A stretch of DNA of 64,000 bases, taken from Candidatus Hermodarchaeota archaeon (GTDB lineage Archaea; Asgardarchaeota; Thorarchaeia; Thorarchaeales; Thorarchaeaceae). Numbering within the stretch: position 1 is the stretch's first letter; each line of letters starts with the position of its first letter. Position numbers and translations under genes: made by a program. Shown here in pieces: positions 24,829-27,700 of the stretch. A model generated the notes under the pieces. It did no database searches. It was not told the origin of the DNA and saw only the letters and a program-made list of their open reading frames with translations. The DNA is taken from contig JBHLLF010000018.1 in assembly GCA_048885865.1 (NCBI GenBank), positions 1 through 64,000 of the forward strand. The letters are read 5' to 3'.

Positions 24829-26322
24829 ATGTCACTTCAGTCAGGTTTTAGGTGTACTGGGTGTGGAAAGGAGTTTGTTCCGGAGAAATACATTAATTCT
24901 TGTCCTATATGCGGACAGATTCTAGAAGTGACCTATGACCTAGGCAGGGCAAGAAACCAATTCACTCCCAGGAAGATCAGAAATAGAGGGCCAGCAATTT
25001 GGAAGTACCTTGAACTACTTCCAATTCGAAGTGAAGCGAATATGGTTTCACTTGGAGAGGGAGGAACCTACTTACACCGGTGCGATGGGCTTGCAAAGGA
25101 CTTCGGAATTGAGTGTCTTTACCTGAAAGACGAAACAACAAATCCGACGGGAGCGTTTATTGATCGTGGGACCGCAGTCGAAGTGTCTGCAGCGAAAGAG
25201 CATGGGTTCAAATCTGTTTGCTGTGGCTCTACTGGAAATCTTGCTGCGTCACTTGTTGCCTATGCTGCTCGGGCTGGTCTTGAGAGCAAGGTGTTCATCG
25301 GTCAAAGAGGGAATGTGGATATCGGCAAGTTCTACCAGATCCTAGCCTATGCAGCAGATGTAGAGATAGTCAGAGATCATGAGGAGGCAGTGTCAATGGC
25401 ACGCCAAGAGGGTAGAAGAAGCCACCTCATAACATCGTCCAACCCACATTTCATGGAAGGAGAGAAGACAACTGTCTATGAAACATGTGAACAACTCGAT
25501 TGGACTGCGCCGGATTGGATTATTGCTCCAATGGGAAATGGCGGTCATGTGTCAATGATATGGAAAGGGCTAAGGGAGCTGGAGCAAATCGGGCTGATAG
25601 ATGCTTCACACACTAGGATTATCGGGGCTCAGGCGAGCGGTTGCGCACCAATTGTTGAGGCATTTAAGAGGGGGGTGAAAACCATCACTCCACCTTCTTC
25701 TGCATCTACGGTAGCTTTTGACATATGCGTAAGGAATCCAGTTTGTGGAAGTACAGCACTAATGGCAATTGAGGAGTCAGGCGGAATAGCTATTTCTTCC
25801 TCCGATAGAGAAATACTAGAAGCTGTGAGGCAGCTCGCAAGACGAGAAGGCGTCTTCGCAGAACCATCTTCAGCTACTACTATAGCGGCTTTACAGAAAC
25901 TCATTCACTCAGGAAAGATAGAACGGGGAGAGTCTATTGTTTGTGTCATTACTGGAATGGGGCTCAAGTACCCCGAGATAGCAAGGACCTTTGTTAAGGG
26001 GACTGGGCCTCTTGAACATCTTCTCAGTAGGATAGAGGGACGTAAAGTCACAACGAAACTAGGTCAGACCAAAATTCGCATTCTGCAGATACTCTCTAAG
26101 TGTGAATCTTACGGATATGGAATATGGAAGGCTCTGTTGGATGAGTATGGAATGGACCTTAAAATCCCGAGCATATACCAGCACCTTACAGAGCTGACCA
26201 GTAGCGGACTGATTATTAATACGCGAGTTGAGAAGACGTATGAAAACCGTCAAAGAAGCTACTATGCATTGACTGAGAAGGGAAAGTGGACTCTAAATCA
26301 AGTTAGAAAATTGGAAAGGTAG
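24829..26322 (+). CDS. Threonine-synthase-like protein (PLP Lys replaced by Ile) fused to a C-terminal PadR wHTH
   Basis: Zn ribbon, SLGEGGT, NPTGAFIDRG (canonical SFKDRG), STGN, PMGNGG, EPSSA, TGMGLK; C-terminal ILQILSKCESYGYGI..SIYQHLTEL..GLI..RSYYALTEKG. Confidence 0.85.
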   Translation: MSLQSGFRCTGCGKEFVPEKYINSCPICGQILEVTYDLGRARNQFTPRKIRNRGPAIWKYLELLPIRSEANMVSLGEGGTYLHRCDGLAKDFGIECLYLKDETTNPTGAFIDRGTAVEVSAAKEHGFKSVCCGSTGNLAASLVAYAARAGLESKVFIGQRGNVDIGKFYQILAYAADVEIVRDHEEAVSMARQEGRRSHLITSSNPHFMEGEKTTVYETCEQLDWTAPDWIIAPMGNGGHVSMIWKGLRELEQIGLIDASHTRIIGAQASGCAPIVEAFKRGVKTITPPSSASTVAFDICVRNPVCGSTALMAIEESGGIAISSSDREILEAVRQLARREGVFAEPSSATTIAALQKLIHSGKIERGESIVCVITGMGLKYPEIARTFVKGTGPLEHLLSRIEGRKVTTKLGQTKIRILQILSKCESYGYGIWKALLDEYGMDLKIPSIYQHLTELTSSGLIINTRVEKTYENRQRSYYALTEKGKWTLNQVRKLER

Positions 26323-26406
26323 GTACAGGTAGCGTACGTAGGAGAACTGTTTTATGTCATAACCTCGATGAGCTTACTATCCTACTGCTTTGAGGGAGGA
26401 AAGCCA

Positions 26407-26787
26407 ATGTCAAAGAAATGGATACAGACCGATGATTGGAAGAACGAGAAGCACGTGCCGTCTATCGATATAAAGAAGGTCGAAGATGGGAAGGCCTATG
26501 TCAAAGTAAAAGTTGGCAAGGAAATTCCACATCCAAACACGACTGCACATCATATCAAGTGGTGTGACCTCTTCTTCTGGCCAGAAGGAGCTAAGTTTCC
26601 CGTAGAGATTGGATACTGTACTTTCGATCACCACGGTGAATCTGCTGAGGGTCCTGATAGTAGTGGCATTTACAGCGAGCCAATTGCCAAGTTCGTCTTC
26701 AAGACCGACAAACCAGGTACGTTGATGGCTACTGCGTATTGCAACATTCATGGTCTCTGGAAGAGTGAAGCTGAGCTGAAACTCTGA
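26407..26787 (+). CDS. Superoxide reductase (neelaredoxin/desulfoferrodoxin-like)
   Basis: EKHVP, HPNTTAHHI, YCNIHGLW; ATG 26407 follows GGAGG. Confidence 0.92.
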   Translation: MSKKWIQTDDWKNEKHVPSIDIKKVEDGKAYVKVKVGKEIPHPNTTAHHIKWCDLFFWPEGAKFPVEIGYCTFDHHGESAEGPDSSGIYSEPIAKFVFKTDKPGTLMATAYCNIHGLWKSEAELKL

Positions 26788-26984: not shown

Positions 26985-27242
26985 TTAGGTTTCCTTGATT
27001 ATTTCCGCGCCCCATATGGTGTTTCCATCAGTCAATCCATTCACACTAACACGCTTCCCCAACACGACAGCAAACTTCCCACTATCAAAGTCAGGAGAAA
27101 CAGCCTCCCACGGCATGATTGCTGACAGCTTGTACTCAGTGCCATCGTCCATCGTGACTGTATAGGAGTCGAATATCTTTGACATCAAACCCGTAACAGT
27201 TATCTCCTTTAGAGAGTCGCTCATGCTCTTTACCCCTAACAT
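26985..27242 (-). CDS. Small hypothetical protein (OB-fold-like)
   Basis: Beta-rich ORF of about 80 aa; the start may be MSDSL. Confidence 0.6.
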   Translation of the reverse strand: MLGVKSMSDSLKEITVTGLMSKIFDSYTVTMDDGTEYKLSAIMPWEAVSPDFDSGKFAVVLGKRVSVNGLTDGNTIWGAEIIKET

Positions 27243-27246
27243 CAGC

Positions 27247-27263
27247 AGTCACATAATGTGACT
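27247..27263. promoter_or_regulatory. Palindrome AGTCACAT-A-ATGTGACT, candidate operator
   Basis: Perfect 8-bp arms in the divergent intergenic region upstream of the micro-peptide operon. Confidence 0.5.
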
Positions 27264-27333
27264 CTATTCTGTGACCCTTAGTTGTGGCTCCGCATTATAT
27301 ACTCATTCTGTGTGTTAATTCTTGTGAAACATC

Positions 27334-27441
27334 ATGGCCCTGACTAAGAATACTCGGAAGTCATCTGTGAAGAAGAACACGAAGATGAGGAGAATAATCT
27401 CCACTGATGCCATCGGATTCGCATACGCCTTTCGGAGGTGA
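27334..27441 (+). CDS. Basic micro-peptide 1 (35 aa) MALTKNTRKSSVKKNTKMRRIISTDAIGFAYAFRR
   Basis: Manually translated; TATA-like TTATATAC about 35 nt upstream; paralogous to the next ORF. Confidence 0.7.
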   Translation: MALTKNTRKSSVKKNTKMRRIISTDAIGFAYAFRR

Positions 27442-27445
27442 TAAT

Positions 27446-27535
27446 ATGGCAATAGCAAAGAAAGCAACTCAGAAGAAGCAGAATAGAAAGAAGATCTCTA
27501 CTCGTGCAATAGCATACTCATACTTCAGGAGATAA
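27446..27535 (+). CDS. Basic micro-peptide 2 (29 aa) MAIAKKATQKKQNRKKISTRAIAYSYFRR
   Basis: GGAGGTGA RBS overlaps the previous stop codon; shares IST-x-AI...Y...FRR with peptide 1. Confidence 0.7.
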   Translation: MAIAKKATQKKQNRKKISTRAIAYSYFRR

Positions 27536-27551
27536 ATCGCAATGATTTACG

Positions 27552-27683
27552 ATGACAATTGCATCCAGTCTAACTTCAAAGACTCATGCCTTCACAACGA
27601 AAAAGCAGAAGGCCGTTGTCTTACTCGTGAGGAAGTCCTCATGCTGGAAGCCACGTGAGCACTTCCTCTACTACTTCTACTGA
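27552..27683 (+). CDS. Basic micro-peptide 3 (43 aa) MTIASSLTSKTHAFTTKKQKAVVLLVRKSSCWKPREHFLYYFY
   Basis: MxIA start, KKQK and an aromatic C-terminus like peptides 1 and 2; followed by a T-rich tract. Confidence 0.45.
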   Translation: MTIASSLTSKTHAFTTKKQKAVVLLVRKSSCWKPREHFLYYFY

Positions 27684-27700
27684 TACTTTTGCATGTGCAT

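Follow-up and report, generated by a model that had tools for sequence, protein, structure and literature searches.

The 458-nt gap (27243-27700) between two minus-strand open reading frames (ORFs) in the 64,000-nt stretch of archaeal DNA analysed here (the window, which carries the 5' end of a 23S rRNA gene at 1-540) very probably holds, on the plus strand at 27247-27690, one self-contained expression cassette, consisting of an operator, a BRE/TATA element, a short leader, three translated and coupled microprotein genes (A1, A2, and B), and a 3' hairpin. The microprotein family is Thorarchaeota-specific, multi-copy, and confined to one Asgard archaeal family. No family, fold, or system fitting the defining features of the cassette has been described, and no literature on the microproteins was found. 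The best explanation as a whole, which joins this anatomy to a mechanism of binding, is tentative; its functional part, namely that the cassette encodes inducible intracellular binding microproteins, a basic pair with an acidic partner, which share a regulon, is possible but rather doubtful.

Gene A1 (27334-27441, plus strand; HMM E=1.6e-17) encodes a 35-aa basic microprotein that starts with M-A-L-x-K-N, continues with a Lys/Arg/Ser-rich middle part, and ends with a C-terminal S-T-x-A-I...Y/F-x-F-R-R helix. Gene A2 (27446-27535, plus strand; HMM E=7e-10) encodes a 29-aa basic microprotein, a paralogue of A1, starting with M-A-I-A-K-K and ending with I-S-T-R-A-I-A-Y-S-Y-F-R-R. The initial annotation described an unannotated operon of three related peptides under selection at the protein level, and this holds for the operon and for the first two peptides, which lie where they had been placed, share the C-terminal motif, are real paralogues, and have frames that are kept in related genomes. 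In five orthologous loci, substitutions at the first, second, and third codon positions number 11/9/17 in A1, 4/5/10 in A2, and 18/13/24 in B, an excess at the third position, and Nei–Gojobori dN/dS equals 0.54, 0.17, and 0.24, respectively; A1 is, with its value of 0.54, only weakly constrained. The third peptide, however, had been assigned a wrong frame and sequence. The frame at 27552-27683 is open, yet its codon-position substitutions (16/24/18) and dN/dS of 1.04 in five orthologues, against 0.24 for B, do not follow a coding pattern. The third gene is B (27542-27658, plus strand; 38 aa; HMM E=7.8e-18), since both conservation and the substitution pattern follow that frame: a DNA search of the window's own genome yielded paralogous copies on contigs C2 and C13, and the third ORF of the full C13 operon aligns with 27542-27658 and not with 27552-27683; in the B block shared by the window and C13 paralogues six codons differ, with four of the changes synonymous in the frame 27542-27658; and among 28 distinct B relatives conservation stops exactly at the stop codon of this frame. 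B is hypervariable in its N-terminal part and near-invariant at the C-terminal end, which reads (L/I)-(T/S)-x-E-E-V-L-x-(L/W)-E-A-T up to the stop codon.

The coding signatures, together with conserved ORF boundaries and hundreds of relatives, leave a negligible probability that the stretch is non-coding and represents a small RNA (e.g., a C/D-box sRNA) or chance ORFs. A weak Rfam match to sR43 at 27381-27438 (E=0.018, 20.4 bits) speaks for such an RNA, but this best hit of a search with nothing above threshold lies far under the gathering score of 45. The C/D-box sRNA candidate (RF01128) was therefore rejected on the basis of its score, the lack of a terminal CUGA box, and the protein-coding nature of the stretch. 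Two further observations concern the frames themselves. In one orthologue of the gene at window 27446 (locus L035, G015:C9), the A2 start codon is ACG and not ATG, which could mean that A2 is no longer translated or starts non-canonically there, or could be a sequencing error. A2 and B share a frame in most cassettes, with one stop codon and two further codons between them, and five public gene calls of 69-90 aa (P0046, P0053, P0058, P0060, and P0074), obtained in a search of 1.84 billion proteins, resemble A2-B fusions. They were considered as Rosetta-stone evidence and discarded: in P0046 (L065:1142-1354), the one checked, a TAG stop codon is read as Gln, an artefact of gene calling, and all five share the R-Q-I junction.

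Upstream of A1, the TATA-like element and the 17-bp palindrome (27247-27263) named in the initial annotation are present, and both are kept in at least 34 loci (29 fetched loci and 5 variants) from at least nine genera. The palindrome is part of an operator array (27247-27289, plus strand), in which GTCACA-N3-TGTGAC (27248-27262) is followed by GTGACC (27271-27276) and GTGGCT (27284-27289), with half-sites approximately 13 nt apart, and the array ends at the BRE. The 42-nt operator pattern, with up to three mismatches allowed, was found 1-6 times per genome in 58 of the 61 genomes of the family; reversed as a control, it matched nowhere in them. The strong BRE/TATA core (27290-27302, plus strand, with TTATATA at 27295-27301) is invariant in type I loci and, judged by the archaeal consensus, is the putative promoter. 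The 15 nt directly before the first ATG (27319-27333, plus strand), which form the leader/initiator region, are conserved across genera and contain no Shine–Dalgarno site for A1, which makes a very short leader likely; with the transcription start estimated from the TATA distance, the A1 transcript leader is probably very short. Two promoter types exist in the cassette family, and the window's copy is of type I. In type II, a TTTGGT-N-ACCAAA palindrome abuts the TATA box; the genome under study has two copies of it, one in front of the four-gene cassette (C13) and one immediately downstream of a lone A1 (C2, L063:4288-4314).

It is also worth describing the genes near the window's cassette. 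The minus-strand ORF at 26985-27242 encodes 85 aa, is unassigned to a family, and gives weak DUF1344/DUF5818 matches. Its start lies only 5-23 nt from the operator palindrome, so the operator may control this ORF too. Two genes upstream of the cassette, 26368-26787 (plus strand) encodes a desulfoferrodoxin-type superoxide reductase (Pfam E=1.5e-27), which is probably unrelated to the cassette, and 24829-26322 (plus strand) is a 497-aa ORF resembling a threonine-synthase-type PLP enzyme fused to a C-terminal PadR-like winged helix-turn-helix (wHTH) domain. An orthologue of the 198-aa neighbour used for the empty-site comparison was found in none of five congeners.

The genes within the cassette are tightly packed. 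Intergenic distances are 4-7 nt; A1 and A2 are 4 nt apart, and the usual spacing between the A2 stop codon and the B start codon is 6 nt across loci. The Shine–Dalgarno site for A2 (GGAGGTGA, 27434-27441, plus strand) is located inside the last Arg codon and the stop codon of A1, an arrangement that recurs in related cassettes, and the site for B (AGGAGA, 27527-27532, plus strand) is located inside the two terminal Arg codons of A2. From this placement and the short spacing, A1, A2, and B are predicted to be translationally coupled. The double use of terminal Arg codons as the next ribosome-binding site had been pointed out before, as had its possible contribution to the RR match between the first two peptides, and both points agree with the present data: the "RR" ends of A1 and A2 are partly explained by the terminal Arg codons encoding the Shine–Dalgarno site of the next gene.

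An RNA hairpin at 27627-27671 (plus strand), overlooked in the initial annotation, closes the coding part of the cassette. Its core arms are formed by 27629-27641 and 27656-27668, the loop region contains GAAG, and the whole is built from the last nine codons of B, the TGA stop codon, and approximately 10-13 nt of the 3' UTR, with the B stop codon within the 3' arm. RNAfold gives the same stem-loop at the B stop codon in most of 29 loci. In an ungapped alignment, 80.5% of cells pair, compared with 28-49% when the partners are slid; three pairs covary by double changes, one of them dividing G-C to U-A as 10:9, and the score was unmatched in 500 shuffles (0/500). The synonymous positions of the Ala and Thr codons of B covary with the opposing variable codon. 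G-U pairs are frequent, which points to an RNA structure rather than a DNA palindrome. Hairpins of this kind in 433 kb of fetched loci were all located at B-type stop codons (25 of 25). The T-tract reported downstream is weak in the window, where the run (27687-27690, plus strand) has four T, and it is clear in related loci, 17 of 28 of which carry a T-rich tract (at least 6 T in 8 nt, within about 30 nt past the stem). Its probable role is to terminate the transcript or to stabilise the 3' end. The near-invariant C-terminus of B is thus under a double constraint, as protein and as RNA, and as the RNA hairpin alone can explain much of B conservation, B may matter less as a protein.

The location of this hairpin raises the question of whether the ORFs act mainly in cis. 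In such a mechanism, translation of B would open the hairpin and affect termination or mRNA decay, and A1 and A2 would be leader-like elements for a downstream MFS gene. The B stop codon inside the 3' arm of a conserved hairpin, the clustering of conservation in the final 10-13 codons of each ORF, a feature also of arrest peptides, and the position of A1-A2 upstream of an MFS gene in some loci are consistent with it. However, most cassettes are followed by a convergent gene, so there is nothing downstream to regulate, the codons that encode the preserved A motif vary, many genera retain the A1 as well as the A2 type, and dN/dS of A2 is low (0.17). A cis-acting role is therefore quite unlikely. 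The hairpin could also be a target of the peptides. It was considered that A1 and A2 bind the GAAG-loop hairpin of their own operon, and perhaps other RNAs or the ribosome, and so set termination, mRNA stability, or translation, with B as an antagonist; we judge this very unlikely. Short basic peptides and a conserved purine-loop hairpin (here GAAG) are likewise combined in one transcription unit in λ N/boxB and Tat/TAR, but the cassette hairpin is located at the 3' end inside the coding region, there is no sequence similarity, and peptide–hairpin binding is hypothetical. Were such an RNA–peptide switch real, the Asgard lineage would have its own, purely microprotein-based version of the N-boxB or Tat-TAR logic.

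Beyond the window, 58 of 59 genomes in the family to which it belongs contain 1-14 matches each to an 80-sequence profile of the basic peptides, whereas the 191 genomes searched from 27 further families of the phylum contain none, a distribution that goes well beyond chance. An earlier profile, based on five basic peptides of the same genome, had matched 19 of 24 genomes of the family. The matches lie mostly in open frames of approximately 31-40 aa, with a minority in longer ones. Among 1.84 billion protein representatives, only 68 small proteins were recovered; the search with B gave 11 database proteins, all named "hypothetical", and the name Candidatus Thorarchaeota on one of them fixed the lineage. 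Pfam and NCBIfam scans of all three peptides (E<=1) yielded no match, PDB profile searches gave no match for B and otherwise only a similarity of the N-terminus to yeast Pop7 that is attributable to chance (E=1.3), and the A or B motif was encountered in larger proteins of the same genome as chance matches only. The general order of a cassette is an optional acidic P0, A1, A2, and B, with B absent from some cassettes. The genome under study contains at least five cassettes (C18, which is that of the window, C2, C13, C1, and C22), of which the C2 copy consists of A1 only and the C13 copy is the four-gene form. The C22 cassette (C22:47729-47954, locus L090) is divergent, with one A-type gene (33 aa), one B-type gene (39 aa), and a variant operator; it was missed by the B profile and detected only via the GAAG-loop hairpin at the stop codon.

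The genomic positions of the cassettes are conserved as well. Type I cassettes occupy several such positions, e.g., directly after PolX in at least five genomes; at the PolX locus of the genome under study, the contig ends 123 nt past PolX. At the four-gene type II cassette, the conserved neighbours are a divergent wHTH gene of approximately 250 aa on one side and a convergent UbiE-type methyltransferase on the other. The conservation of these positions across genera (after PolX and between the wHTH gene and the methyltransferase) argues for a host function and not for a selfish element. The ~250-aa gene faces the palindrome beside the TATA box of its cassette, and its product weakly resembles PH1932 of Pyrococcus horikoshii (PDB 1uly/2cwe), an ArsR-type wHTH protein (E=0.017). 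This likeness is marginal and concerns the paralogous C13 cassette, while the window's copy has another operator, and the role of the protein as a regulator is putative.

The pairing of basic and acidic small proteins in a multi-copy family, with a fast-evolving N-terminal part of B, would also fit a toxin–antidote or conflict module, in which the basic peptides are toxic and acidic B (and P0) neutralises them. Type II toxin–antitoxin systems are variable or mobile in location and patchy in spread, but here the family is near-universal in its own archaeal family (58 of 59 genomes) and synteny is conserved across genera. A separate regulator and a regulon shared with housekeeping-type genes are unlike a selfish module, no match to the operator pattern was found on viral contigs, and some cassettes lack B. 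It is unlikely that the cassette is such a module.

The regulon indicated by the operator is not limited to the microproteins. The type I operator also precedes MFS_1 transporters of ~480-518 aa, A1-A2-MFS_3 operons in several genomes, in which MFS_3 takes the place of B, and a 408-aa bactofilin-domain protein. Weaker copies of the operator in the genome under study are located before a bactofilin-domain gene (C6), an MFS gene (C11), and a gene for a 154-aa wHTH-like protein (C1). In the neighbourhood survey, limited to the 25 commonest Pfam families (59 matched in all) of 112 nearest neighbours, MFS was found in 7. Pointers to nucleic-acid or ribosome biology in the neighbourhood are restricted to PolX beside some copies. 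The transporter and cytoskeletal members of the regulon would be no less compatible with a role in export or at the envelope than with nucleic-acid binding.

Two explanations start from the transporters. The first assumes that A1 and A2 are exported via the MFS exporters of the regulon and act outside the cell as signals or antimicrobials, like leaderless bacteriocins, phenol-soluble-modulin-type peptides (PSMs), or pheromones. In its favour, several short leaderless paralogous peptides are encoded in tandem, A1-A2-MFS_3 operons exist in several genomes, a second MFS gene also follows this type of operator, and the family is multi-copy and lineage-specific. Leaderless bacteriocin operons (aureocin A70, enterocin L50) and the PSM operons of Firmicutes likewise encode 2-4 short signal-less paralogous peptides back to back. 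Those peptides, however, are hydrophobic or amphipathic and membrane-active, and they are encoded with ABC exporters and immunity genes. The A peptides are strongly hydrophilic (GRAVY -0.70); they lack a membrane-active amphipathic core as well as any signal sequence or processing motif. ABC exporters, peptidases, and immunity proteins are missing from the 25 commonest Pfam families of the 112 neighbours, and most cassettes have no adjacent transporter. MFS pumps, moreover, are not known to export peptides of 30 residues, which counts against this explanation. As for pheromones, RRNPP-type signalling relies on an exported propeptide and an adjacent receptor–regulator with a peptide-binding repeat domain. 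A and B have no signal sequence or hydrophobic segment, and no TPR family was found among the 25 commonest neighbour families or at the operator sites of the genome under study. Export of A1 and A2 is improbable, though it deserves some weight. The second explanation is that A1, A2, and B are small-protein modulators that adjust, by binding, the co-regulated MFS transporters or the polymer of bactofilin, in the way that SgrT, MgtS, and AcrZ act on transporters of bacteria. The operator common to the peptide, MFS, and bactofilin genes and, in some loci, the position of A1-A2 directly upstream of an MFS gene in one operon suggest such a role. Most known transporter modulators are membrane peptides, with SgrT as an exception, but A1 and A2 are soluble and basic, and up to 14 A-family matches per genome stand against one or two transporters. 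The chances of this modulator role are small.

The methyltransferase next to some cassettes bears on the earlier proposal that the peptides are RiPP-like precursors. A class I (UbiE-type) enzyme adjoins 13 cassettes, and it could be asked whether RiPP-like or cofactor precursors are matured by enzymes encoded elsewhere, possibly including this one; the conserved Tyr-rich C-terminal motif and the multiple precursor-like copies would be in line with that. A RiPP precursor is expected to have a co-located modifying enzyme, but no radical-SAM, YcaO, Lan, cyclase, or protease family occurs among the 25 commonest Pfam families of the 112 neighbours. The methyltransferase, the only candidate, is convergent, not co-transcribed, and missing at most copies, and no leader/core pattern is apparent in the peptides. 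Precursors of this kind are highly improbable, and the earlier proposal was not supported. As a separate observation, the C13 methyltransferase (L064:3131-3937, plus strand) contains an N-terminal Trm112-like zinc-ribbon segment (NCBIfam E=1.9e-7, below cutoff), and it is possible that it represents a fusion with its own activator.

The chemistry of the products narrows the choice further. The 81 members of the A family have a median length of 33 aa, net charge of +6, pI of 10.6, and GRAVY of -0.70; the B family is acidic, with a median pI of 4.8. Neither A nor B has a transmembrane or hydrophobic segment, and the longest hydrophobic/small run in A, with A, G, and Y counted in, is 10 residues. 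The suggestion that the peptides are membrane-active cationic antimicrobials is at odds with the hydrophilic median and the lack of a long hydrophobic run. The conserved parts of the A peptides are the first 5 residues and the last ~12, and no cleavage motif or signal sequence was seen in them. The extreme C-termini vary (YRR, FRR, LYR, YNR, VVR, and others), and because of that variation docking motifs of the HbYX, PIP-box, FtsZ-tail, and EEVD type were considered but dropped. The loose echo of the histone H3 tail noticed earlier in A1 is not a family trait, as position 2 is Leu, Ile, or Phe in nearly all of the 81 members, the Lys/Arg positions vary, and the equivalent of position 4 of the H3 tail is variously K, T, S, or E. 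AlphaFold2 is confident only for the C-terminal helices, that is residues 25-34 of A1 (pLDDT ~85) and residues 29-36 of B (pLDDT 88). The predicted A1+A2+B complex scored 0.03, which weighs neither for nor against binding.

Binding of nucleic acid or the ribosome by the peptides, which had been put forward from the start, is possible and is part of the mechanism proposed for the intracellular binding microproteins. It assumes that a dedicated DNA-binding regulator would switch on the cassette, its paralogous copies, the two MFS transporters, and the bactofilin-domain protein together. Induction would result in stoichiometric amounts of two basic microproteins, A1 and A2, each combining a disordered Lys/Arg-rich part with a short amphipathic Tyr/Phe-rich C-terminal helix. 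These would dock on a polyanionic intracellular target (RNA, ribosome, or DNA), while acidic B, and in the four-gene version also the acidic fourth protein, would act as their buffer or chaperone. Transcription would end at the hairpin, which would also shield the 3' end of the transcript and so permit high, short-lived expression.

In its logic, such an arrangement comes closest to a regulon of small proteins for stress or dormancy, e.g., the small acid-soluble spore proteins (SASPs, alpha/beta-type and minor) found in Bacillus and Clostridium. These are likewise encoded by many scattered paralogous genes for very small hydrophilic proteins under one dedicated type of promoter or regulator; bulk production under a single condition is presumed for them as for the Thorarchaeota family. 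Here, too, small genes in multiple copies stand behind one promoter type (1-6 operator sites per genome), but the likeness is an analogy in logic and not homology, and there is no Pfam match to PF00269 (E<=1). The Thorarchaeota genes, unlike those for SASPs, form three-gene operons with an acidic partner in a non-sporulating archaeal host, and SASP-like DNA binding is to be read as an analogy only.

Asgard archaea are the closest known relatives of eukaryotes, and, to our knowledge, their small proteins are almost entirely without annotation. In one Asgard family, almost all genomes encode members of a microprotein family not described before, with as many as 14 genes each and with an operator of its own, in an unusual design in which the coding sequence of the last gene doubles as the 3' hairpin of the transcript. 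The peptides are short enough for synthesis, which would allow a direct search for their binding partners. Given how widespread the family is and how closely it is regulated, it very likely takes part in a physiological programme that defines the lineage and is absent from the present annotation.
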